A stretch of DNA of 32,000 bases from Candidatus Peribacteria bacterium (GCA_023898485.1 CP060225.1:412824-444823), one strand, 5' to 3'. Counted from the stretch's first letter, positions 1,107 to 32,000 are shown. Made by a program: numbers and translations. The notes: generated by a model not told the origin, from the sequence alone.

Positions 1107-2326
1107 ATACTCTCCCCCACTACAGCCGCACTAGCCCAACATCGTTGCAGATTGTATCATCCAGTCACACCATCCACATCTACCACTTCACCTGCGAAAT
1201 AGAGTCAGGGGACAAGACGAGACTGCATCGTCTGGGGATCTATCTCTTCACGAGCGACACCACCTGCGGTGACGAATTCATCACCTGGTCTGCGTCCCAC
1301 AATAGTAATGGGTAATCCGTTTCCAAGCAGTGAAGAAAGATTCAGACGCTGATCACGAGTCAGGGTGCCGATGGGAGTCTGCATGTCGATTCACGTCTGA
1401 TGGATCACTGCTTCCGCGAAACGTTTGGGGAAGTGTTGTGAGAGTATGGTAAAAATAGTTTTGCGAGGGTGATCTGCTACTGCATCAAGTAAGAGCTGAT
1501 CTCGATCATCTGCAGATGTGGTAGCATCAGGCTGGAAATGGATGGATAATGGATGATCTTGCGAGATCGTCTCAAATGCAGACTGTGATGCGAGGACGAA
1601 CGTAGCCGGTCACGAGAGGCCAAAGTGTGTCAAAAGTACTGGTCAGGTACATGATCCACCATGTCGTGTCAGACGAGCGCTAGGGAAAGCGATTCATGAG
1701 AGTTCGTGGAGATATTTTTGGGTGGTGAGGAAACTATTGAGCGAGGGACCAAGTGGCGTCACTCTATGTCCGAGCATACGAGCAAAAGCGTATCCATCAC
1801 CTGTCGATCAGGTCTGGGTGTATGCATTGCCTCCTGTCGTGATCACGACGCGATTGAAGTGATAGGTGTCTTGATCAGTGGTGAGGGTAAATCAGTCTTC
1901 ATCATGTGTGATACTCTTTACTCATTCTCTGAAATGAAGGGAAACTCCCCTCTCAGCGAACAGCTGCTCGTACATACCCACCACCTCACGTCCATCATCC
2001 GAGACAGGGAAGACTCTGTGGTCTGACTCCTCTTTGGTCCTGATCCCACGATCTTCGAATCGTTGACGGATTTTTTTGGGAGAGTATTGTTTGAAAATCT
2101 GCTGAGCAAACTCCCCTCCTCTGGTATAATGAGGAAGTAAATCACGCGATCTATAGTAGCCAGTAGTTAGGTTGCAGCGTCATCAGCCAGAAATAATCAC
2201 TTTGGCACCGAGTGATTTGTTCTTCTCAAATATGGTGATAGTTCACTGGAAATCATCCCTGAGCGCGAGTGTAGCTGCCGTCATCATACCTGCAGCTCCT
2301 CCTCCTATGATGGCTACTTTTGTCAT
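1103..2326 (-). CDS. NAD(P)/FAD-dependent oxidoreductase, HI0933/YhiN (BaiN-like) family
   Basis: MTKVAIIGGGAAGMMTAA (GxGxxG) ..KVIISG[G][G]RCNLT (TGA-TGA at 2180-2185) ..TQT[G]STGDGYAFARMLGH..LLTHFGLS[G]PATF..EFVTAGGV..VP[G]LYFAGEVVDVDGVTG[G]YNLQRCWAS. About a dozen in-frame TGAs, each at a Gly-consensus position of this family. TAA stop at 1103-1105. The track ORF 1918..2145 is in the wrong frame. Confidence 0.9.
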
Positions 2327-2725
2327 TTATTCCGTTGTCCTCCCGTCAAAATCTTCGTCATCCTGCTCGGCTTGTGCTTTGGTTGCATGGATGATGCCAT
2401 CGCGATGGTGAGGTGGAGAGTAGAGCGTATACATCTGTAGTGGATCAGTCGTGGAAATATTGATGATATTATGTTCTGCTCCTGCCGGTATGATGATTGC
2501 TACACCATCATGGAGATCATACTCATGTCCATCGATGATCGCTTTTCACTGACCTGATTCGAAGCGAAAAAATTGATCATTATCATGATGGACTTCAAGT
2601 CCAATCTCTTCCTCTGGCTGAAGTGACATGAGGACAAGCTGGGTATGCTTTCCTGTATAGAGTACTTTGCGAAAGTTGGTATTATCATGTGTTTGCTGTT
2701 CAATATTGGTGTGATATCAGTGCAT
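2327..2725 (-). CDS. cupin-domain protein
   Basis: MH[G]YHTNIEQQTHDNTNFRKVLYTGKHTQLVLMSLQPEEEIGLEVHHDNDQFFRFESGQ[G]KAIIDGHEYDLHDGVAIIIPAGAEHNIINIS.. (cupin_2-like G..H.H and PAG..HN motifs). Its TAA stop (2327-2329) directly abuts the ATG (2326) of the downstream flavoprotein gene, which indicates an operon. Confidence 0.8.
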
Positions 2726-2758
2726 GGTACCTGCCTATAAAAAAGTAAATATATCTAT

Positions 2759-2787
2759 ACTATAATAGATATTGCCTATGTTTTCAA
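2759..2787 (-). promoter_or_regulatory. sigma70-like promoter: TTGAAA, 17-nt spacer, TATAGT (minus strand)
   Basis: On the minus strand, TTGAAA (2787-2782), the 17-nt spacer acataggcaatatctat, then TATAGT (2764-2759). This lies about 35 nt upstream of the cupin ATG at 2725. Confidence 0.5.
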
Positions 2788-2824
2788 TGGTAGAAATGGT
2801 GAGTACATATACGACGATTGTGTT

Positions 2825-3427
2825 TTACAAAGGTATATTGACGCCCAATTTTTTGAGCAGGAAATCATAGAGTACAAAGGTCGCTCCAAACACGAAGATA
2901 GTAATAATGATCTTGTATGTGGATCTATGTTTTTGGTATGTGATGCGATCAGCATGGGTGGCGACATCCATCATCTCATCACCGAAATAGATCGAAAACA
3001 CCGTCCCTATGATCGAGAGTACGATGATACCCCAGAACGGTCGTGGTTGGGAGAGGATATGGTAAAAAAGATTGAGAATCACCGTTTTGGTATATATCTC
3101 TGGCATCGCAAAGTAGGTATAGAGATTGAGTCCTGCAGCTATCACAAACGCTGCCAACTGTGTATAGAGCATCCTCACATGGAGGAGAAGTCTCACTGGA
3201 AATGCCAAGATAAACCCCGCATCTGCTATCGGCGTACAGAAGACGAAAAATGACCATGTTAACACTGTCACCAGCAGCCCATCACTCGTGCCAAATTTGT
3301 GCGCCATGTAGAAAAAATATCCTACTACGATCAAAATAAGAAGAAAAAATCTGACGAGGGCTTCTTTTTTGGTAGGGTGACGTGTGAGGTGAGTCAGGTC
3401 GGGGTTGGTGGTCTGAGACATGATCAT
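2825..3427 (-). CDS. hypothetical polytopic membrane protein
   Basis: Uninterrupted ORF with no internal TGA. It has 5-6 hydrophobic segments (..ALVRFFLLILIVVGYFFYMAHKF..LLVTVLTWSFFVFCTPIADAGFILAFPV..). The start is ambiguous (3451, 3427 or 3421). TAA stop. I recognise no family. Confidence 0.6.
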   Translation of the reverse strand: MIMSQTTNPDLTHLTRHPTKKEALVRFFLLILIVVGYFFYMAHKFGTSDGLLVTVLTWSFFVFCTPIADAGFILAFPVRLLLHVRMLYTQLAAFVIAAGLNLYTYFAMPEIYTKTVILNLFYHILSQPRPFWGIIVLSIIGTVFSIYFGDEMMDVATHADRITYQKHRSTYKIIITIFVFGATFVLYDFLLKKLGVNIPL

Positions 3428-7679: not shown

Positions 7680-7689
7680 TGATACGCAT

Positions 7690-7763
7690 CGGGATATAGC
7701 TCAGATGGCTAGAGCGCAAGGCTGGGGGTCTTGAGGCCGCAGGTTCGAGTCCTGTTATCCCGA
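7690..7763 (+). tRNA. tRNA-Pro (anticodon GGG)
   Basis: Hand-folded cloverleaf: acceptor CGGGATA/TATCCCG, D-arm GCTC..GAGC, anticodon stem CAAGG/TCTTG with loop CT-GGG-GG (G37), T-arm GCAGG-TTCGAGT-CCTGT, discriminator A73. No CCA is encoded. Confidence 0.85.
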
Positions 7764-7766
7764 GAT

Positions 7767-7848
7767 GCCGAGGTGATGGAATTGGTAGACATGTACGCTT
7801 CAGGTGCGTATGCCGCAAGGTGTGTGGGTTCGACTCCCATCCTCGGTA
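7767..7848 (+). tRNA. tRNA-Leu (anticodon CAG), type II with long variable arm
   Basis: Acceptor GCCGAGG/CCTCGGT, anticodon stem TACGC/GCGTA with loop TT-CAG-GT, long variable arm TGCCGCAAGGTGT, T-arm GTGGG-TTCGACT-CCCAT, discriminator A73. It starts 3 nt after tRNA-Pro. Confidence 0.85.
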
Positions 7849-7881
7849 ATTCACGTAATTTTGATTATTCATCATATATCT

Positions 7882-10554: not shown

Positions 10555-11682
10555 CTACTTCCTCTTCCACAATTTCACCTCCTCTCCTCCGTTTCGCCAG
10601 GTCTCATATTTTCGATCGTTCAGATCCATCTTGCCCACATCATACGAGGTAATAAATCAGCCATTCGTCCCCTCTTGTTCCAAGAGTGTGATCAAATCTT
10701 CATAAAATACTTCCATATCCATTTGGTCCATTTCATCTACTGAGCCTAATTTCTCCCCTGTTTGCGGAAGCAAACGTTTACCATACGGAGGATTGGAGAC
10801 GATCATCCCATCTCGATGAGCTCGCTCACCTAATGCTTTGCGCTCTCGTGACACCAGATCACTGACGCCCGCTCTGTCTGCATTCGCTTTTGCATGAGCG
10901 ATCATTTGCAGATCTCTATCTGTACCCTTCAGGACATATTCTTTGCCAAAGAGCATTTTTGCCTCTTCGGTTTTTTTCTTGTTCGCCATATCCACGTTCC
11001 ATGTCGGCCATCTCTCACATCAGAACTCACGACTCAGACCCGGTGCACGATTGACTGCCATCATGGCTGCCTCGATGATGAACGTCCCTGATCCACACGT
11101 CGGATCCAGCAGTGGTTGTCTCCATGACCATCCCATACTCAGGAGGATGGCTGCTGCGACGTTTTCTTTGAGCGGAGCATCACCAGTATCCAGTCTATAG
11201 CCACGCTGATAGAGCGGATCGCCACTCGCATCGACGATCACTTGTACTCTATCCTGAAGGATCGACACCGTCACGAGCTGACGAATCTTCCCATCATCCT
11301 GCTGTCGATGTCCCTCTCCTCCGACCAGCGACTGGATGATAGATTTGTGGGCAATAGACTGTGTCGTACGATCTGACTGGAGTTGGGATTTTCGACTCTG
11401 CACGTGCACGATCACTCCTCTTCATTCGCCAATATACTGAGACCAATCACAAGCAACCACACGATCAAAAAGTGTATCATAATCCGTGATCATCTCATCT
11501 ACCACCACGAGTCAGACCCTATTCGCCACCCTCGATCGGATATTCACGTCCGCAATCGTGTCATAGTCTCCCTCGACCATCACCGAGCTCGTCGTCGTCT
11601 CAGTCGTGACGCAGTCCAGACGCCTGAGTTCTTTTTTGAGTATTTGTCCGGTACCACGCGGACACGTCACTAATAGTTGCAT
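10555..11682 (-). CDS. THUMP-domain class I SAM-dependent RNA methyltransferase (COG0116, RlmL/RlmK-like)
   Basis: [22 protein letters not shown].. (THUMP N-terminus) ..[37 protein letters not shown] (motif I) ..[14 protein letters not shown] (motif IV NPPY). In-frame TGAs join track ORFs 11020..11415 and 10657..10995. TAG stop at 10555-10557. Confidence 0.85.
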
Positions 11683-11715
11683 TGACACACCATCTATAAA
11701 TCAAATAAACTCGTA

Positions 11716-13266
11716 CTACTCTTGATATTGCTTAGTCGCATATCCCAACCGCGCGCCCATCATCAGCATCCATGGATAGATACTCATGCTCTCCATCATA
11801 CTATGGAGCACCAGTCACACGATACCCAGTCACACTGCTCCAAGTAGCAAATATGTTCCATCACTATTTCGTCCATTTCTTCTCCTTATTCCATTTCGTC
11901 CTACCGCCACCCACAAAGCCACCCACAGCACAAAACCAATAATACCCACTTCCATCAGGATTTGGATATACTGATTTTCGGGATGATACACTATCGTGTT
12001 CTCTCCATCTTCTGCTCTATATGCTCCTGGTCAGACCGAAGCAACTCCGTATCCTGTTCGTGGGGACTGTCAGACTTTTTGTATTCATTCAATAAGCAAT
12101 TCAACATGACCCTTGTCAGACAGATCTCTCATCAACACCCCCTGATCACGATCAGCAGCCTGAGGCACATCCACCGGTCAGGCGACACGGATCAGTCCTA
12201 TCGTAGCTATCATTCATAGTCATACTGCCACAAAAAGTGAAACTACTGAACACCAAACACTACTATAAGAGTTTGTCGTAGCAGGTGTACGACAAGTGTT
12301 TGCAAGATCAACACCCGTAGCAGGTGTCGAGCACGCACCGGCTGCGAGACTTGATTTTTTTGCGTACTTTTTGGATCAAGCCAAAAAGTTCGTCCCAGCG
12401 AAGCGTCTCACTAAGAAATGAACAACAAGAACCAGTAAAAGTTCCACCAAGAAAACTCCCCACGCTGCACGAGAGAAGGTCAGTCCCACATTGACCGTCA
12501 ATAACACTATCCAAAACACCATATGTCACCACTTGCTACCATTGGCTACCATTTGTGACCACCTCCATATATACCATGGCGCAAACGCTATCAAGAAAAA
12601 TCCCCAACTGGTCGGTCCACCAAAGATCGATCCATTGCGGATATAGCCCCATCGAACCTGCGTCAGATAGCGTACAGGCGGCGCAAATCATTCACTCCAC
12701 TGATACGCATCCATACTGTATCCAAGCGATACAAGGAGATCTGGGAGCCAGACGCTCAGTCCTCGTCGCGCAATTCCAACGACAAGTAAGACGCTGATGA
12801 TGGTCTGCATGGTTTTGGCAAGACGCTCGTATCATCACTGTAGGCGAACGACGATATATCCTGTGAGGAGGACTATTCGTGGGATGATATCGTATTTGAT
12901 GAAGACGATCCACTCACGGAGTAACTGGTCATGCACACCGAATGCCAGGATCGCAGAGAGAATCAGTAATGTAAGTAATAATCCAATCATCGTCAGGAGA
13001 AACTTGTCTGCAAACAGTTCCTTCATGCTACTTATTCTATTTATTCCACTTCGTCTCTTTCTTCCAAAGACTACCAACCACAGACTACCAACCAATAATC
13101 CTCCAATAATGAGTTCTTTCCACAGCCACACCATTTCTGGTACATCTATACCAAAACCATACACCAGTATCGTACGTAAGACGAATGGTAAGGTCATACC
13201 TATCAACCATAACTGGAGAATACGAATCATAGAAAAGAAAAGAAGAATAAAAGCAACAAGTAACAA
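11716..13266 (-). CDS. O-antigen ligase/polymerase-like (Wzy_C-type) polytopic membrane protein, paralog B, carrying an in-frame inserted element
   Basis: Many TM segments. ..GLTFSRAAWGVFLVELL.. is the Wzy_C-like SR[GA]A motif, followed by ..RTGYGVASV[G]PGAYR..PENQYIQILMEVGIIGFVLW... It is colinear with paralog A. More than 10 in-frame TGAs. TAG stop at 11716-11718. The start is uncertain (TTG at 13266 or ATG at 13230). The loop at 12247-12408 is about 45 aa longer than in paralog A. Confidence 0.7.
12340..12390. repeat. copy A of a conserved hairpin/pseudoknot module, inside the paralog B CDS
   Basis: GGCTG..GACTTGAT-ttttttgcg-TACTTTTTGG-ATCAAG-CCAAAAAGT. There are 35/42 identities to 19629-19670, and the only stem differences are compensatory (GG:CC versus CT:AG). 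Confidence 0.6.
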
Positions 13267-13280
13267 GTAATAAGTACCTG

Positions 13281-14651
13281 CTACCTCTGTTCTACCTGAT
13301 ACCTGTTACTGACATATGCTACCGTCACTCCGTATGGAATGAAAAAGAGGTAATTGACCATGCTATCGATGAAGACATGGAGTACCAGTCACTCGATCAG
13401 TAGGCCACCGAAACCCAATGACATCAGCAATATTAGCAATGAAAATAGCCCTTCATCACCCTCTATAGCCCTTCATCACCCTCTATAGCCCTTCATCACA
13501 TACCCAAACCATGTCAGGACAAACATACCAATCAATACAAGTCATGGTCGTCACATATTGACCACTCGCTGGATATAAACACTCTCTACCATAGACAGAT
13601 CATGCTGAGGACGAGTTTGGTAATCAGGTGCATAGTGCTGTGCTGGTCACGACATGCCCAATCCATAACCTCGTGGATTGTCTTGGATGACACGTCGAGC
13701 AGTAGATCGAGCACTCTCATGGGTCTGTGTCGATCCGACTTTTCGCTGCTGGATGAGACCGATAAAATATCGTGATACCAGTCATACGAAGATACTAAAC
13801 AGCAGTTTTCTCGCTCGAGAAATATTCCACAGGAGGATGATACCCGCAATCATCTGTACACCAAAGGCGACCACTGCTCCTCTACTAAGCGTCGCAAACA
13901 GCGACACCACAAAAAGTACTGTGAACAAGAACACCTGCCAACGGCGGCGGAAAAAGTTCACCACTGCAGATCTATACGATGCAAATGCTACGAGCAAAAA
14001 TCCTAAGACATTGGGTCATGCAAAGAGTCCTGACAGACGCGGATGTCCGTCTGGTCCCGTGAGATAGTACACCGGTGGAGCCATGTCTGGAGAGAAATCA
14101 CCAAATGGCCCATAGCCTAGATACTGGATGAAGATATCAGGAAAAAAGAATTTGAGCCCCTGCCATAGCCAACCGACAATCAGTAACCAGTAAAGAATAT
14201 GAAATACTGCCTTGTGTAACTGTAACAATGAGGCGGATCCTCCATTATCGTCCATAGTCCTTCACCGTCCTTCCTGTTCCTTCCGCCAAAACCCCAACCA
14301 TGTCGCTGATGTCAGGAGGACGAAGGGATAAATATCGTATTTGAAGCCGATGATAAGCTGATATCGTGTCTCTCATACCCACAGTGAGTGTCCGACTCAC
14401 CACACGACCAAAACCAGAAGAGCGAGAAGTAGTCGTTTTCGTTCATGAGCTCGTCTGATCAGCGCTTTGGGATATGAAAACGCAAGTCGTACCAGTAGAC
14501 CAAACCGCAAAACTTCTCTGCCAAAAATTCGCATTCGTTTGGTTCGAGCGAGATCGAGTCCATACGTCACTCGCGCTTGAAGGACGAAACTCGCCGCAAT
14601 CAATACCAAAAATCCGATAACATAATGTGTCACGCGCTGGAGAGAAGACAT
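13281..14651 (-). CDS. O-antigen ligase/polymerase-like (Wzy_C-type) polytopic membrane protein, paralog A
   Basis: (M)MSSLQRVTHYVIGFLVLIAASF.. ..FKYDIYPFVLL.. ..LFATLSRGAVVAFGVQMIAG.. ..PRGYGLGMS[G]PAQHY..ESVYIQRVVNM[G]RP[G]LVLIGMFV... In-frame TGAs join track ORFs 14397..14654, 14016..14255 and 13782..13997, plus the C-terminal TM region. A TAG lies immediately upstream of the start. TAG stop at 13281-13283. Confidence 0.75.
13445..13499. repeat. perfect 20-bp tandem repeat, 2.75 copies, inside the paralog A CDS
   Basis: ATAGCCCTTCATCACCCTCT x2, then ATAGCCCTTCATCAC (plus strand). On the coding strand it reads VMKGYRG[G][G]RAIEGDEGLF, so successive copies are read in different frames. Confidence 0.95.
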
Positions 14652-20797: not shown

Positions 20798-21571
20798 TTA
20801 TCCAAAGAAGACTGGATTAATCAGTCTCAGGATGATACCAGAAGCACCGAGCAATACAAGCGAAAGTATCACTCTCCTCATCATCTTCTTACCCTGCTCT
20901 GCATCACCACTCGTCCACATCACACCTGATACGACGAGAAGTACTATCGAACCGACCAAAATCAGCGTCATCACAATATTGGCAAGTGCTCTCATCAGAC
21001 GAGGAAACGCTGTTGCTGTGCCTGCTTGCGTATTACCTTCCAAACCATCTAATTGATTAATACATCTTCCTACAAAAGGGACATCAGTATTGAGTTTCAC
21101 CCCACAACAAAAATCTTTTTCATCAAACTTTGCACCATTTTTTCAGGCAGCCTTATCTGCTGGATTAGCTGCACCTATATAATCACAACCCATATGAACC
21201 TCCTCACCATTAATCTCACCATTAAACCACATACAATAAGTATCATTATTACTACCTACAGAATAAGTTCCACCATAGTAAGTAATTGTTTTAGCTGTAA
21301 TGAGATTAAATTGAGCATCCTTACTACTGCCACCCTTTGCCCCTAAGCAAGAACGAATACCAGTACATGCATCTACACATGCTTGTATATTTGAGCCAGC
21401 TGGTCCAGCAATAATGGTATTCGTACAGGCATCCATGCAGGATGTAGCACAAGAAGAACCAGATGGACAGTTTTGAGCACTTCATCATGTCTGTGCAAAA
21501 GCACCCATACCGCCCAATACAATAATCCCAAGCATAATGCCCAAAATACGATACAACATCTCCAAAAACAT
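20798..21571 (-). CDS. secreted Cys-rich protein with a C-terminal two-TM module resembling CPR T4SS-pilin (TrbC/VirB2-like) proteins
   Basis: Signal peptide MFLEMLYRILGIMLGIIVLGGMGAFAQT[G][G]S.., a Cys-rich region (CPSGSSCATSCMDACTN..ACVDACTGIRSC), then a C-terminus ..AFPRLMRALANIVMTLILVGSIVLLVVSGVMWTSGDAEQGKKMMRRVILSLVLLGASGIILRLINPVFFG (TM, polar loop, TM). In-frame TGAs join track ORFs 21143..21436 and 20798..21100. The ATG overlaps the yqeY-like TAA (TAATG). The functional call is tentative. Confidence 0.55.
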
Positions 21572-22133: not shown

Positions 22134-22221
22134 GCTGGGGTGATGGAATTGGTAGACATGCACGCTTGAGGGGCGTGTGGGCAACTTGCCCGTGGGGGTT
22201 CAACTCCCCCTCCCAGCACCA
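22134..22221 (+). tRNA. tRNA-Leu (anticodon GAG), type II, with encoded CCA
   Basis: Acceptor GCTGGGG/TCCCAGC, the same D-arm as the other Leu tRNA (TGATGGAATTGGTAGACATG), anticodon stem CACGC/GCGTG with loop TT-GAG-GG, long variable arm, T-arm GGGGG-TTCAACT-CCCCC, then A73-CCA. Confidence 0.85.
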
Positions 22222-26065: not shown

Positions 26066-27676
26066 TTATTTTCTCATCGCCATCCTCTCGGCATGTCTCA
26101 CATCAGGATGTTTTCTGGGCAATGGAAGGTTGTGTTTTGTATAAAAATCTATCTCCTGTGGTATCAGACGGAAAAGCTTCCCACTCACTTCACATCTGAT
26201 CGCATAGCGTAGGATATCACTGAGAAATTCAGGCTTCTTCTCCTGTATCGTCGCACAGCCATACTCAGGCAGTTTCTCTCCAGGGATGATCTTGTCTACT
26301 TGGGGTTGTGGTGCTTCGTAGGTACTCCACTGATATCACCAATCTGGTAAACTGTTATCCTGGTAAGTTGTTATGCTCTCCACTGGATAATACTCATTCG
26401 CCACCGTCTCATTATATCCGAATGGACTCAGCGATGGATGGAAAAACTCACCTCGCTCTCCGGTCTGTTTCATATGATCGATGATTTTGGGAGCAAGTTC
26501 ATTGTATTCTTCTTTGGTGTATTGCTGATTGAAGATGCAGTATTCTTTGTTGCGGAGACCGTCGCAACCAAAACAATGCACACAACTTGTACAATGAAAA
26601 CTATACAGTACGTCACTAGCATTATTATCAATATTACAATTAAACAATAATCACGAAACATTATCACCTATTGCAACATCTTCATAACAAAGTTGACTAT
26701 TCTGACCCCAGGCATACACATCAAAACAGTCTGTAGAGTCATACAACCATGCTACATAAGAACAGTCCTCTAAATTACGCACATTATATCATTTCTGCAC
26801 TCTTGTGCTATTGTCTATGTGGAGCCCATCCACATTAGTACTAAAAAAATTAGTGTTCTGTTGTTTTCTATTCTTCCACCTGGAAAATGTCTCTAGGTGA
26901 TTAACATTATCCAACAACTTCTGATATTCTTCTTGAGAATATTGTTGATTATCAAAACAATACTTTGCATTGTCTAATCCATCACAATTATAACAGGATT
27001 GACAGTTAGTACAATTCGTCAGAAACCAAGAAGATGATGAATTTCTTGTGTTAGAGCAGTATAAAAGACCATAACTATCATAGCAATCCACCAATCCATA
27101 AGAATTTTCACACCTGAAAACCATATAACTATCAACGGTATTTTTACAATCTATAATATAGGCAGAATAAAGAGAATTCTGATTTTGTGAAGCAGAAGAT
27201 GTTAAGTAACAACTTCTCTCATAATTACAACAATTACAATAATCACTATTTTCACCAAAATAATTATAAAGGGAAGGAAAAGGTGTATCCTTTATAAGTT
27301 CTCCAAACTGCTCGGTAAAAGTACGAGAAAAATCAAAATCACGACCATAGTCCATTGGGTCTCGAGCATCAGATCGCCAGATCTTCTGATCATAGACTTT
27401 GTAGGGTTTATCAGGACTATACATAGAAATAATCGGCTTCTTGGATGCGTCACATGTCCTGGTATAGAGCTTCCTCTCATTGCGAAAAGCGAGACGACGA
27501 CGTTGACGACAGTCAGGACAGAGAGTGGGAGTAGGTATCTCTGCGACATAGTCTCCAAACTTCGGAGAAACTTTGGCATAGAAATCCAGATCCTCTTGCA
27601 TGATATCAAAGGATGATGAGCAGTGTCTACATGTTCTTGTCCCGACTTCAGCGGGATTGGTTTCAATGACAGACAT
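26066..27676 (-). CDS. Cys-rich zinc-ribbon repeat protein of unknown function, paralog 1
   Basis: MSVIETNPAEVGTRTCRHCSSSFDIMQEDLDFYAKV..TPTLCPDCRQRRRLAFRNERKLYTRTCD..ISMYSPDKPYKVYDQKIW.. then two Cys-rich modules ending ..CTNCQSCYNCDGLDNAKYCFDNQQYSQEEY.. and ..CTSCVHCFGCDGLRNKEYCIFNQQYTKEEY.., with C-terminus ..IRCEVSGKLFRLIPQEIDFYTKHNLPLPRKHP... Three in-frame TGAs join track ORFs 26789..27712 and 26336..26647 and the tail. TAA-TAA stop at 26066-26068. Confidence 0.75.
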
Positions 27677-27742
27677 GGGAGAAAGGATAAGAGCATAAAA
27701 GTGTAAGAGCATAAGAGGTATATGTGTTGGGAGGATAGGAGT

Positions 27743-27770
27743 ATCATAATGATTTCCTCAATCTTGTCTA
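27743..27770 (-). promoter_or_regulatory. candidate promoter of the Cys-rich gene: TAGACA, 16-nt spacer, TATGAT (minus strand)
   Basis: TAGACA (27770-27765) lies inside one copy of the GATAGACA direct repeat. TATGAT is at 27748-27743. Confidence 0.4.
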
Positions 27771-27891
27771 TCACAAATTGTGTCTATCTGTGCAATGACT
27801 TGCACAACAGAAAGAAATCACTATAAAACAAAAAAACGTTCTCCTTTGGAAAAGGAGGGGCTGCTTGCGGTGGAGGATTTTCTCAATCACA

Positions 27892-27919
27892 GTCACAAGA
27901 TATTTTTGCTCTCTATAAT
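27892..27919 (+). promoter_or_regulatory. candidate promoter of the TrmB-like gene: GTCACA, 16-nt spacer, TATAAT, giving a possibly leaderless mRNA
   Basis: A perfect TATAAT at 27914-27919 ends only 6 nt before the ATG at 27926. Confidence 0.45.
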
Positions 27920-27925
27920 CATTCT

Positions 27926-28699
27926 ATGCTCCTATCATCTTTTCTCTCCTCCATCGGCATGTCCGACAAAGAAATCGATATCTATCGCACCGTCGTTGAG
28001 CGCCACAAAACGACACCCGCCATCGTCGCAGAACAGTTGGGTCGTGAGAGGACGTCCACCTACAAGATGATGAAAAATATGGTCTGATCAGGGTTTTTGA
28101 GTACCACCCATGAGCATGGGACGACATTTTTCTTGGCAGTAGATCTTGCTATCCTCCAGCAGCGTTTCGAAACTCAACGCCAATCACTCAATACGATTGC
28201 AGACTCCTACGACGACATCCTCCACGAATACGAGTCAATCCAGAGTGCGCATCAGTTCCGTACGAGTATCCGTCTTCTCTCGGGTACGTCTAGCATCCGC
28301 TATGCATACCACACGATGAGCGAGATCATAGCACGTGAGTGACTTCGCTATATCACATGCATAGCTAGTCATACCCTGGACATGATGAGTGGTGGTGATC
28401 CTGTGTTGCAAGAGCTCTATAGCGGATTCTTCTCATCACTCCACGATCAAAAAATCACCGTCTCCAGCCACCTGGGCCAATGACTCTGACTGATGGAAAG
28501 ACTCCAGCATGCCCTGACACTCGACGCGATCTCCGAGATGCCCTACGCCAACAGTGCGACCCACGTACGGATAGTCGGGTATGATATTTTTCTCCTCCTC
28601 TTCACGGCCGATCCACAAGTCATCCATATCCACAGCCCTCAAGTTGCGGGCCTCCTGATGTTCGTTGCTGAACAATTAGAAAAGGAGGGAAAATCATAA
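27926..28699 (+). CDS. TrmB-family (winged-helix) transcriptional regulator
   Basis: MLLSSFLSSIGMSDKEIDIYRTVVERHKTTPAIVAEQLGRERTSTYKMMKNMV[G]SGFL.. is a TrmB-type N-terminal wHTH. Four in-frame TGAs join track ORFs 28097..28342 and 28493..28699 in one frame. TAA stop at 28697-28699. Confidence 0.7.
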
Positions 28700-28729
28700 T
28701 CCCGTAAACTCGTATGCTTGTATACCTCC

Positions 28730-30976
28730 CTAAATAAGTGGTGCCGCAAACTCTTCTATCTTCTCTGTGACATCTGCTTGCTTGGAGACTGCTTCCTTTG
28801 CCTCAGCGATCGAACGTGAGTATTTGCTACGTGAAATTTCGTACAATTCTTGGATATAAGTCGGTGATATTTTCGCGTCAGGTGTGTAGAGCGTCTTGAG
28901 TGAGAAAGGATCCTTGACCTGACCCTGGATGATCGTCTTGCAGTATAGTTCACGTATATTGAGATTGGCAATATCGTAGTCATCTACAAAGGGTGAGAAG
29001 TGCTGTTTCATATAGATCGCATCCTCCGACGATATTCTAAAACTCATCAGCGTACCCACGTTTCCAAACAGTGATTCAGACAGCTTGGTCGGTATCTGCC
29101 TGATGAACTGGTGTGCGACAGACAGACCTAGTCCGTACTTACGCGCTTCGGAGAGGATCTCGTTAAACGTGTCGGTAGCAAAGTTTTGAAACTCATCCAC
29201 ATAGAGGAAAAAGGGGATACGCTCCGACTTGGACAAATTTTGTCTACTCATCGATGCTTGGAAGATCTTGGTCACGAACATTGCTCCCAAAAAGCCCATG
29301 ATATCTTCTTGAAGTTTGCCTTTGGGGAGTTTGACAAGGAGGATTTTGGATTCATCCATCATCTCACGGAAATCAAGTTTATTGTCAGGAGAGGCGAAGA
29401 TATTTTTGAGGATGTCGATACTGAGCAGCTGACCTACTTTATTCAAGATCGGCATGATAGCCTCCGTATTGAACTGCTGTGACCGACCTGCAAATTCATT
29501 GGTCCAGAAGTTGCGCACGACGTCATCATTGATAGAGTCGATCATATCATAGCGGAAATCTTTGTCTGTCAGCGCACGGATGATGTCAAACAGTGTCGAA
29601 TTCGGTTTGTCAAGGAGCGCTAAGAAGATCATACGAAGTACATGTTCCAGTTTTGCATTCCAGTTGGAGCCAAAAAATTTATTGAAGATATCGATAAATC
29701 ACTTCGCCAAAATTTGTTTGGACTCCGTCTCTTTAACATCCAGCGGATTGAGACAAAAAGGATATTCTTCATCCGTCGGATCGAAGATAATCACATCATC
29801 TTTGCGTTCAGGTGGAATGTGAGTGATAAGCTCACTGATCAGATCTCCATGTGGATCAATCACACCGATACCTTTGCCTGCTTGGATATCGCGAATCATC
29901 AGCGACAGGAGAAACTTCGATTTACCCGTACCAGTCTTACCCACGACGTAGGTATGTCTCAGTCTATCCTCATCATAGACCGCGAGTGGCACACGAGTCG
30001 AGCGATAGTCTGAGATACCCAGTGGAGTCATCTCACGAGGTACGTTGACAGGCACGATCTCACCGTTTTCCAGTGTCTTATGAGGTAGTGACGGAACTCC
30101 AACAGGGACACCGAGCTTCTTGCTCTTCACCGTCAGAAGAGAAGTTTCTGTATCAGGACGCGCAGGGAAGTGAAATATTTCTGCTATCTCATGGCTCGTC
30201 AGGTTGATAGGTGCCCGATTACCATCACCTTTAAGGAGAGTTTTGAGTGCTCCAGTTCCCTTGGTCGTACGCAGGAGAAACTGATTATATGGAATATCCT
30301 TCAGTACCAAAAATTTATTAAATACCGATCTCAGTTTACCGAGCGCGATATCCTGTGTCGATGCTTGCGCGATGATCGCTATGCGAGTCGCGAAAAGTGG
30401 CTTAATACGCTTTTGTGCGAAGAATGCATGACCTTTCTTCTTCCATTCTTTGGGCAGGTTTCTCATCATCATATATTTGGGAAACTGCGCCCTGAGCATC
30501 CACCTAAACGCCCGATAATCAAATTTTTGACGCAAAAAATGAGTCAGACTCTCTGTCTGGAGCGGCGTAATTTGGACGATATAACTCACCTTCTCGGTAG
30601 CGATATCTACTCCTTCAAGTGATCTCAATATACTGTCAATAAAAGCACTATCATCATTCCTATCTTCTGCAAAAGGGAAAAATCCTCCATTCTCGAGATA
30701 GACTTCTCCTACAACTGTTTTGTTGCTCTCATAGTTCCAGATATTCTTATCATCGGGGACGATCTGAAAATCATTAAAATCTGTATAGAACTGACTCTCA
30801 AAACTTGCATATGTCGATGGACTCGCATCGAACGAGTACAGAAGCTCACCCTGATTGGCATGCAGACCGAACATCATGGTCTGATTGGTCATCGTTTTTT
30901 GGATATCATCGAGAAAATCTTGGAACGACGACTGCGTCTGACGAAAACCATGATATATCTTGATAAGATGAGTCAT
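28730..30976 (-). CDS. FtsK/HerA/VirD4(TraG/TraD)-superfamily P-loop ATPase (T4SS coupling-protein-like, no N-terminal TM segments)
   Basis: ~300-aa unique N-terminal domain, then ..HTYVVGKTGTGKSKFLLSLMIRD..GIGVIDPHGDL.. (Walker A) ..IPFFLYVDEFQNFAT (Walker B) ..YGLGLSVAHQFIRQ... A single in-frame TGA at 29699-29701 (..QILAK[G]FIDIFNKFF..) joins track ORFs 29699..30976 and 28730..29632. TAA stop. Confidence 0.8.
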
Positions 30977-31093
30977 CAGAAAAGAAGAAAAACAAACAAT
31001 ACAATAAGGTTTAGTATACAGATGATAAGTAAAAAATGCAAGAAAAGAGGCTGGTTTTTTACCTCCGTTATTGCATCATTACTATAGAAGTAG

Positions 31094-32000
31094 CTATTTC
31101 ACCCTAAAATGTTCCTTGAGTCTTTCTAACCAGTGTTTCCTCGGGAGTGGTAATCCATACTTGACGAGGAAATCGTATTCCATCTTGATCACTCTGTAGA
31201 CGTTTCACTGCTCATCTCTGATTACTTTTTTCAATATCGACGGATCTATGGTCCAGTCTCCATTATCATCAAATCATTCATAATTTCCAAGATCTGCGAC
31301 TTCCACCACATCCATCCACTCTGGGACATCGACAGCGATCGGTTCATCTCTTCGGAGGTATCATGCTGCAGTGACTTCTTCTTTGGTGAAAGTATCGTCT
31401 ATCAGGTAAGCAGCGGTGTCGTTGAAGTAGAAGGGATTCATAGAGCCAGGGAAAAACTTCCCAAGATCACCATCCTTTTCCATCTGAGTAAATATTTCGT
31501 CGACTTTATCATATCGTTCTTCTTTGGTGTATTGGCGATTGAAGATGCAGTAGGACTTGTTTTTAAGACCAATGCAGCCGAGGCAGTAGGAACAAGCATC
31601 CATATCAATACAATAAAAAAGATTATAACACTTATATCATCCGAACAGAAAACAATACAAATGGGACGAAAGTGTTCATGCCTGACATGTTGCATAAAAA
31701 TTATCTGAATCAATACCAATATCAATTCCATCATAAAAATTATTACTTCATGTATTTCATCATTCAAATAAAACAACATTCCTCGAATCTGCTACATCAA
31801 AAGCAAGATACCCATTAGTAACATTACGAGAATTATTAACACCCATACAATTATTCAAATCTTGAGATCAAATATTTTTCATATTAAATTTCGCAACATT
31901 TCACCACTGGTCAAAAGATGCCTTATCTTCCAAGATAGATATTTTTTTAGTCAGATAGTCTTCTTTTGCATATTGAACATTGGCGATGCAATATTGTTGA
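31094..32000 (-). CDS. Cys-rich zinc-ribbon repeat protein, paralog 2 (C-terminal ~300 codons; gene runs off the window end)
   Basis: ..QQYCIANVQYAKEDYLTKK.. ..MDACSYCLGCIGLKNKSYCIFNRQYTKEERY.. ..VYRVIKMEYDFLVKYGLPLPRKHWLERL.. is colinear with paralog 1 (second module plus the C-terminal FY/LPLPRKH motif). Many in-frame TGAs. TAG stop at 31094-31096. Confidence 0.7.

Follow-up and report, generated by a model that had tools for sequence, protein, structure and literature searches.

A predicted orphan type IV coupling protein of Candidatus Peribacteria lies in a conserved gene module with Cys-rich proteins and a TrmB-like regulator

We analyzed a stretch of 32,000 nucleotides (nt), in the following called the window, from Candidatus Peribacteria bacterium, a very small symbiont belonging to the Candidate Phyla Radiation (CPR), and focused on a block of four genes between position 26066 and the window's end. 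The gene order on the minus strand is a partial gene for a Cys-rich protein (cys2), a gene for an ATPase of 748 amino acids (aa) and a second gene for a Cys-rich protein (cys1). A gene for a TrmB-like regulator is located on the plus strand between the ATPase gene and cys1, convergent with the former and divergent from the latter. The block contains the following features:

26066-27676/27712, minus strand: cys1, type-A Cys-rich protein of 536-548 aa (727 bits with the hidden Markov model (HMM) of the family)
27682-27713: tandem 16-nt direct repeat AAAGGATAAGAGCATA / AAAGTGTAAGAGCATA between the two candidate start codons of cys1
27789-27806, no strand assigned: perfect 18-bp palindrome TGTGCAATGACTTGCACA between the divergent starts of cys1 and the TrmB-like gene, candidate operator
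27841-27857, minus strand: hairpin CTCCTTTTCCAAAGGAG followed by a T-run, in the intergenic region of cys1 and the TrmB-like gene just upstream of cys1
27926-28699, plus strand: TrmB/TrmBL2-like winged-helix regulator of 257 aa (Pfam TrmB PF01978, 39.4 bits, cut-off 25.6)
28730-30976, minus strand: ATPase of 748 aa, predicted soluble type IV coupling protein (T4CP) of the VirD4/TrwB type (Pfam, Foldseek on the model of an orthologue, hhalign)
29186-29206, minus strand: Walker B motif LYVDEFQ of the ATPase
29918-29941, minus strand: Walker A motif GKTGTGKS of the ATPase
30077-30976, minus strand: N-terminal domain (N-domain) of the ATPase, 300 aa
31094 to beyond 32000, minus strand: cys2, type-B Cys-rich protein, partial (C-terminal 301 aa in the window, HMM 170 bits)

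All genes were read with genetic code 25, in which UGA encodes Gly. In open reading frames (ORFs) of at least 150 aa the window yields 20,387 aa with table 25 in comparison to 5,908 aa with table 11, and the table 11 reading was discarded since all genes of the block break up under it. The ATPase gene has a sole in-frame UGA, which encodes the Gly of residue 426. When 32 ATPase orthologues were aligned from their DNA, the columns with UGA turned out to be otherwise overwhelmingly Gly, which argues for code 25 and against code 4. The source genome uses this codon sparingly, with one internal UGA in the ATPase gene compared to up to 40 in orthologues; cys2 has 10 in its 301 codons and cys1 has 3 in 536 codons. 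Under code 25 the block has the anatomy described in the initial annotation of this DNA, i.e. two Cys-rich genes, a TrmB-like gene and a 748-aa ATPase.

The ATPase contains both Walker motifs that had been reported for it. It matches the Pfam family TrwB_AAD_bind over residues 327-652 (49.5 bits, cut-off 20.5) and also lies above the Pfam cut-offs for T4SS-DNA_transf (24.7 bits) and TraG-D_C (23.9 bits). No transmembrane segment was found, as no 19-residue window reached a Kyte-Doolittle value of 1.6; the protein had been described as lacking a membrane anchor. For its structure we used an AlphaFold2 (AF2) model of the orthologue P0121, which is 72% identical (predicted local distance difference test (pLDDT) 85, predicted template modelling score (pTM) 0.82). 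The model starts with a beta strand, and a helical block at about residues 421–540, between Walker A and Walker B, corresponds to an all-alpha domain inserted in the ATPase domain. Foldseek aligned the model with TrwB over the ATPase domain (E 2e-10, target-normalised template modelling score (TM-score) ~0.6, root-mean-square deviation ~5 Å) and with VirB4/TrwK along its entire length (E 5e-13, low TM-score). Further matches were found to Cagbeta and DotL as well as to Sulfolobus HerA (E 2e-10).

The 120 best-scoring protein clusters are 57–72% identical to the ATPase, nearly all over the full length, and their source names are Gracilibacteria, Absconditabacteria or “gcode 4” bacteria. When the 300-aa N-domain alone was used as query, only 68 representative clusters were found among 1.84 billion proteins, and every one is either a fragment or the N-terminal part of a protein with a length of about 750 aa. 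At the level of single sequences the N-domain thus appears restricted to this lineage. In a tblastn search of plasmids, Bacillus proteins named “DUF87” covered 87–92% of the ATPase query, and hhalign aligned the ATPase with a Bacillus plasmid T4CP over columns 48–718, i.e. including the N-domain, with a probability of 99.6% (E 7e-25). The N-domain, taken to be unique in the initial annotation, is therefore common to the Bacillus plasmid T4CPs. On a B. subtilis plasmid the T4CP gene is directly followed by a Replic_Relax relaxase gene in a conjugation cluster with VirB4 (AAA_10, 387 bits), and an Embleya plasmid shows the same order of T4CP and relaxase. A transmembrane segment is predicted for the Embleya T4CP; none is predicted for the Bacillus plasmid T4CP. 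By its sequence relationships the ATPase is a soluble, anchor-less T4CP of the monoderm T4CP clade.

More distant relatives of the ATPase were noticed in phages. Its ATPase domain matches the uncharacterised phage family phrog_5156 with 189 bits, and relatives of this type occur in large Bacillus and Geobacillus phages (e.g. gp156 of Bacillus phage G) with 21–26% identity. Among the comparison loci we also found two T4CP-like paralogues with additional C-terminal domains: one on the minus strand at 10702-13653 of locus L031 with an S1 domain (25.5 bits), the other on the plus strand at 1637-3358 of locus L106, beside a Cys-rich gene, with a zf_Tbcl_2 domain (50.2 bits), the same finger as at the C-termini of the Cys-rich family.

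The Cys-rich protein encoded by cys1 has 536 aa if the ATG at 27676 is taken as its start; a second possible ATG is located at 27712. Among its residues are 29 Cys. Its N-terminus is basic and predicted to form a treble-clef zinc ribbon, which is followed by an acidic centre resembling a Cys-ladder beta-solenoid and a conserved C-terminal domain, and the protein has no predicted transmembrane segment. The N-terminus matches zf_Tbcl below the cut-off (17.2 bits, cut-off 24) with all four Cys of the finger present, and the homologues P0016 and P0085 match zf_Tbcl_2 with 27.5 and 28.7 bits (cut-off 27). The gene cys2 is located directly upstream of the ATPase gene on the same strand and continues past the end of the window. 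Its full length was deduced from the contig of the closest relative, locus L116, in which a 491-aa gene with 52% identity to cys2 is located directly upstream of the closest ATPase orthologue. This full-length orthologue has neither an N-terminal nor a C-terminal zinc ribbon, and both cys1 and cys2 end before the terminal zf_Tbcl_2 ribbon of the family. The description of both paralogues as zinc-ribbon proteins hence does not fit the cys2 subtype.

The two proteins are homologous, as had been proposed (BLASTP, 28% identity, E 1e-31). At the DNA level they share only one stretch of 63 nt with 78% identity. By this degree of divergence cys1 and cys2 appear to be ancient subtypes and not the products of a recent duplication; a flanking duplication had been suggested earlier. 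In other genomes orthologues of either gene keep its relative position. In the source genome a further paralogue, P0308 (locus tag H6766_03930, NCBI “Candidatus Peribacteria bacterium”), is 80% identical to the N-terminus of cys1. The family is therefore represented at least three times in this genome, whose annotation used a code that truncates the members. The GC content of the Cys-rich genes (0.36–0.39) is below that of the ATPase gene (0.45–0.48).

In total 3469 homologues of the Cys-rich family were detected at E ≤ 1e-3, with many copies in single metagenome-assembled genomes (MAGs) and a median of 32 Cys. Both ends are conserved: N-terminal residues 21–120 and the C-terminal third show a mean column conservation of 0.63–0.83, the latter with a variable stretch at residues 441–480. 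The centre is variable (0.27–0.57). The N-terminus is basic with a median isoelectric point (pI) of 9.1 and the centre acidic with a median pI of 5.1. Pfam recognises the termini only, as treble-clef fingers below or near the threshold. We modelled the family by AF2 on P0002, an orthologue 54% identical to cys1 (pLDDT 84, pTM 0.84). In the model each end carries a zinc ribbon, and two stretches take the form of beta-solenoids. Foldseek found no significant match for it in PDB (best E 0.017, TM-score ≤0.2) or in BFVD (best E 0.19), and a sequence profile search of PDB returned only LIM-like noise. An identity as a left-handed beta-helix (hexapeptide) enzyme was rejected, as the resemblance is faint (E 0.017, TM-score ≤0.2), and beyond it only generic zinc-ribbon resemblance was seen in the two databases. 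The last 30 residues have a median net charge of -1 in 210 Cys-rich proteins compared to +1 in 376 neighboring ORFs, which rules out a positively charged, Arg-rich tail of the VirB/D4 type. In 2.9 million viral contigs there was one marginal match to the family. Given this single match and the low identity (21–26%) of the phage relatives of the ATPase, a viral origin was discarded.

The TrmB-like identity of the regulator and its convergence with the ATPase gene were both borne out. Its homologues match Pfam TrmB with 33–37 bits and form a coherent group of about 255 aa, and the family profile finds P. furiosus TrmB (3qph, E 1.5e-6) and TrmBL2. The conserved C-terminal domain of about 150 aa has no sequence match in Pfam or PDB. 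That the protein might be a diverged Replic_Relax relaxase was ruled out by an hhalign probability of 0.3%. Between the divergent start codons of the regulator and cys1 we found the perfect palindrome listed above, the sole one of the form TGTNNN-N6-NNNACA in the window. In 1.45 Mb of loci 18 such palindromes occur in comparison to 7.4 +/- 2.8 in shuffled sequences, and 12 of the 18 fall between the start of a TrmB-like gene and the start of a Cys-rich gene, often 8–27 nt from the regulator's start codon. This is good evidence that the palindrome is a conserved candidate operator of the TrmB-like regulator. Scans for promoters and terminators gave no results above shuffled sequences. The neighboring hairpin CTCCTTTTCCAAAGGAG might shield cys1 against read-through that comes from the ATPase gene; alternatively, it might be another site at which a protein binds.

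In order to assess the conservation of the block we used a forward set of 31 ATPase loci from other genomes, in which Cys-rich genes were counted within 10 kb, and a reverse set of 80 metagenome loci seeded on the Cys-rich family. Cys-rich genes were found within 10 kb at 22 of the 31 ATPase loci and directly adjoin the ATPase gene at no fewer than 15 (at least 15/31); all but one of these ORFs are located on the strand of the ATPase gene. When all ORFs of these loci were clustered, only the Cys-rich family (23 of 32 loci, including the window) and the TrmB-like family (6 loci) recurred. Seen from the reverse set, the Cys-rich genes stand in tandem on one strand, with as many as 9 copies in an array. 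Of the 80 loci, 24 also hold a TrmB-like gene, which in most cases is transcribed divergently from a Cys-rich gene and located right upstream of it, and 8 have an ATPase gene adjacent to the array; no further gene family recurs. The ATPases adjacent to arrays at L040, L044, L061, L070 and L106 are only 35–42% identical to that of the window, and the linkage is therefore old. In the closest relative, L116, the order is type-B, type-B, ATPase; in the close relative L117 it is TrmB-like (divergent), Cys-rich, Cys-rich, ATPase.

In a neighbor-joining tree one type-B clade comprises cys2 and 6 of the 7 full-length copies scored as immediately downstream of an ATPase gene, and cys1 falls together with copies of L007 and L008 that are paired with a TrmB-like gene. 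Type-B copies tend to fill the slot beside the ATPase gene and type-A copies to form arrays, and the type-B genes are positionally equivalent to the relaxase slot of the plasmid systems. Taken together, ATPase, Cys-rich family and TrmB-like regulator constitute a conserved module of three families with fixed relative orientation, which is distributed among Gracilibacteria, Absconditabacteria, Peribacteria and some other CPR bacteria. The central proposal of the initial annotation, that the genes work as a unit, gains support from this repeated co-localisation, and the Cys-rich family turned out to be multi-copy rather than a single-copy housekeeping gene. The test that the annotation itself had set for a refutation did not overturn the proposal. 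In some arrays other genes were noticed: a Fic-domain gene inside the Cys-rich array of L002 (7358-8110) and, in L001 (15547-16684), a SocA_Panacea/PemK toxin-antitoxin pair together with AAA_14/DUF4143 genes between the ATPase gene and a further Cys-rich array.

The remaining genes of the window are of housekeeping type as judged by sequence inspection: RNase J, MurE, YchF, HtpX, rRNA and tRNA methyltransferases and O-antigen-ligase-like membrane proteins. The block itself has its place between MurE, YchF and RNase J. Genes for an integrase, a relaxase or VirB4 were not found in the window, and no repeat flanks the block. Further features of the window are:

7689-7849: adjacent pair of tRNA-Pro(GGG) and tRNA-Leu(CAG)
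20801-21571, minus strand: pilin-like gene (Pfam T4SS_pilin 19.5 bits, sub-threshold, cut-off 26.6)
22134-22221: separate tRNA-Leu(GAG)

A distance of 4 kb or more separates each of the three tRNA genes from the block, so that none flanks it; Rfam at the gathering threshold reports tRNA-Pro(GGG) and tRNA-Leu(CAG) only and not tRNA-Leu(GAG). The pilin-like protein is Cys-rich and has an N-terminal hydrophobic segment (probably a signal peptide) and a C-terminal hydrophobic region. A connection of this gene with the block had been considered. Its Pfam match is below threshold and no homologue is present in the 111 comparison loci (ATPase and Cys-rich loci), and the gene is therefore placed outside the module. 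Likewise the interpretation as an accessory island does not agree with the full-length conservation of the ATPase among the best-scoring clusters or with the housekeeping context.

A 2025 survey of Patescibacteria counts 5,713 VirD4-type T4CP homologues, of which only 148 are near virB4, states that exaptation of these homologues “cannot be ruled out”, and reports that Ca. S. epibionticum did not require the gene for its epibiotic growth (PMC12102498). A protein annotated with the T4SS-DNA_transf domain, which may be the ATPase orthologue, is furthermore listed under “Secretion system” in supplementary tables of a metaproteogenomic study of Gracilibacteria (PMC11452946). In the literature searched we found no paper on the Cys-rich family, its linkage to a T4CP or TrmB-like gene, or the palindrome; a paper on a “hypervariable locus” of Gracilibacteria concerns an unrelated PTD-repeat surface protein. 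As a T4CP the ATPase belongs to a known type of protein; what is new is the conserved genomic partnership in which it occurs.

As best explanation we propose that the ATPase would act as a cytoplasmic T4CP, an ATP-driven translocase that is presumably hexameric. The Cys-rich proteins may be dedicated clients or adaptors that interact physically with this orphan T4CP, probably as nucleic-acid-associated complexes in which the ribbons would hold zinc. The T4CP would use ATP to pass the Cys-rich proteins, or the load they carry, to a translocation channel. The TrmB-like regulator most likely binds the 18-bp palindrome and, as repressor or activator, would so control itself and the divergent type-A gene. 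The explanation we favor, tentatively and at slightly under an even chance, is thus a three-family module in which a regulated set of Cys-rich proteins serves an orphan T4CP as clients or adaptors. In its favor are the linkage seen from both sets of loci and kept at 35–42% ATPase identity, the lack of other recurring families, the T4CP homologies of the ATPase, the zf_Tbcl_2 finger common to a T4CP paralogue and the Cys-rich C-termini, the palindromes between TrmB-like and Cys-rich starts, and the many patescibacterial T4CP homologues away from virB4.

Several observations weigh against it. Relaxase or mating-pair genes (VirB4, VirB6) do not recur within 10 kb at the 31 ATPase or the 80 Cys-rich loci. 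Most Cys-seeded loci (72 of 80) have no ATPase gene within 10 kb, and no Cys-rich gene is located nearby at six ATPase loci (L010, L011, L013, L019, L022, L027) for which 5 kb or more of flank is available on one side. As the fold of the Cys-rich protein has no match in PDB or BFVD, no biochemical activity can be assigned to it. Its C-termini are not positively charged, so that the classical C-terminal signal of VirB/D4 systems is absent, and folded Cys-rich proteins stabilised by zinc are inconvenient as secretion substrates. The form of the proposal in which the Cys-rich proteins themselves are secreted is weakened in particular by tails that are not positively charged, the lack of linked channel genes and the six ATPase loci free of Cys-rich genes.

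The main rival is an internal machine for handling DNA or RNA. Here an exapted T4CP-like protein would serve as a cytoplasmic pump or remodeller of DNA or RNA, for instance in chromosome handling, repair or the processing of imported DNA, with the Cys-rich proteins as nucleic-acid-binding cofactors and nothing secreted. A soluble ATPase with 57–72% identity among housekeeping genes fits this idea, as do the S1 and zf_Tbcl_2 domains of its paralogues, which are of nucleic-acid type, the basic zinc-ribbon termini (median pI 9.1) and the lack of a positively charged secretion signal. The rarity of patescibacterial homologues near virB4 and the dispensability of the gene for epibiotic growth in Ca. 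S. epibionticum (PMC12102498) point in the same direction. However, one would not expect a housekeeping cofactor to occur as up to 9 diverged paralogues in one array, with a centre that varies; outside the CPR the most closely related proteins are genuine T4CPs of conjugation, and nucleic-acid binding is so far a prediction. We consider an internal machine unlikely, if the most serious competitor.

Going beyond the client or adaptor role, the Cys-rich family could represent what is missing from the type IV machinery of Patescibacteria, its cargo or a substitute for the relaxase: nucleic-acid-binding proteins that would be piloted by the T4CP into or out of host cells, with diverged arrays setting the host range under control of the TrmB-like regulator. 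This extension is speculative and we regard it as doubtful.

An anti-phage or conflict system, in which a HerA/FtsK-like ATPase would be the motor or effector and the diversified Cys-rich paralogues, controlled by the TrmB-like protein, would serve as sensors or decoys, would account for the variation of copy number and protein centre as well as for the Fic and toxin-antitoxin genes that interrupt some arrays. The ATPase has weak PADLOC matches to mad8 (45 bits, the best) and HerA and a distant sequence match in PDB to the defence HerA 8xau, and its ATPase domain resembles phage proteins of phrog_5156. Yet PADLOC gave no match for the Cys-rich and TrmB-like proteins, no nuclease, Sir2 or other effector partner (NurA, DUF4297) recurs in the neighborhoods, and viral contigs provided one marginal match. 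Defence genes are patchy, whereas the ATPase has a wide distribution, is strongly conserved and usually occurs once per locus, and its full-length homology is to T4CPs and not to defence HerA. A defence role is thus improbable. From the list of translocation, attachment and defence put forward in the initial annotation, defence has become less likely; the list is narrowed without being settled.

Two further explanations are very unlikely. A remnant of an integrated conjugative element, i.e. accessory DNA, would agree with the conjugative origin of the ATPase family and the lower GC content of the Cys-rich genes, but the block lacks integrase, relaxase, VirB4, flanking tRNA and repeats, sits between MurE, YchF and RNase J, and the module is kept in many species despite differing flanking genes. 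Chance adjacency of a family this large (3469 matches, many copies per MAG) is hardly compatible with adjacency at about half of the loci on a shared strand for all but one Cys-rich ORF, with the enrichment of a specific subtype in the slot beside the ATPase gene, with linkage persisting at 35% ATPase identity, or with the zf_Tbcl_2 finger shared by fusion.

Patescibacterial VirD4-type genes far from any secretion apparatus number thousands and their role is an acknowledged open question (PMC12102498). Our analysis offers candidate partners for these orphan T4CPs, namely a large Cys-rich family (3469 detectable members, up to 9 tandem copies per locus), and a regulator with a predicted operator. 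With these identified, the role of orphan T4CPs becomes experimentally testable. If the Cys-rich proteins are translocated or act as pilots of nucleic acids, this would have a direct bearing on how CPR epibionts exploit their hosts.

With the orphan T4CPs of that survey the window ATPase shares the position away from virB4 and a role that is open; partner genes are not reported in the parts of the survey that were covered, whereas the window ATPase is linked to Cys-rich arrays and a TrmB-like gene (PMC12102498). Closest in sequence are the Bacillus plasmid T4CPs (“DUF87”; VirD4/TrwB/PcfC class), with homology over residues ~48–718 including the N-domain. Walker A and B, the helical insertion and a TrwB-like ATPase fold also appear to be common to both as judged from the P0121 model, and neither protein has a predicted transmembrane segment. 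The plasmid genes are located in conjugation clusters with the Replic_Relax relaxase gene directly after and VirB4 near, whereas the window gene has Cys-rich and TrmB-like neighbors in a chromosomal housekeeping context without relaxase or VirB4. HerA ATPases of defence systems and HerA-NurA repair belong to the same ASCE/FtsK-HerA superfamily, as reflected in the Foldseek match (E 2e-10) and the weak PADLOC matches. The window ATPase differs from them in having no NurA, Sir2 or DUF4297 partner in its neighborhoods, in sequence profiles that favor T4CP families, and in a full-length homology that is to plasmid T4CPs.

For the Cys-rich proteins the comparison is one of concept. Effectors of the Xanthomonas type IV secretion system (X-T4SS) are recognised by VirD4 through the shared XVIPCD domain. 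Like the Cys-rich family, they may be viewed as a set of many paralogues with conserved terminal regions, variable elsewhere and encoded near or with a T4CP. They have no sequence relationship to the Cys-rich family, which keeps its whole architecture and varies in sequence only in the centre, and which has no toxin domain, immunity gene or positively charged tail. For the regulator the nearest relatives are TrmB and TrmBL2 of Thermococcales. The sugar-binding domain of TrmB has no detectable counterpart in the C-terminal domain of the window regulator, and its predicted targets are genes for Cys-rich proteins and not for sugar metabolism. Common to them are the N-terminal TrmB winged helix and the following helix, a size close to that of TrmBL2 (257 aa compared to ~260 aa) and a palindromic site in the regulator's own control region, at which binding is predicted. 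The half-sites of the Thermococcales glycolytic motif TATCAC-N5-GTGATA are similar to those of the 18-bp palindrome.

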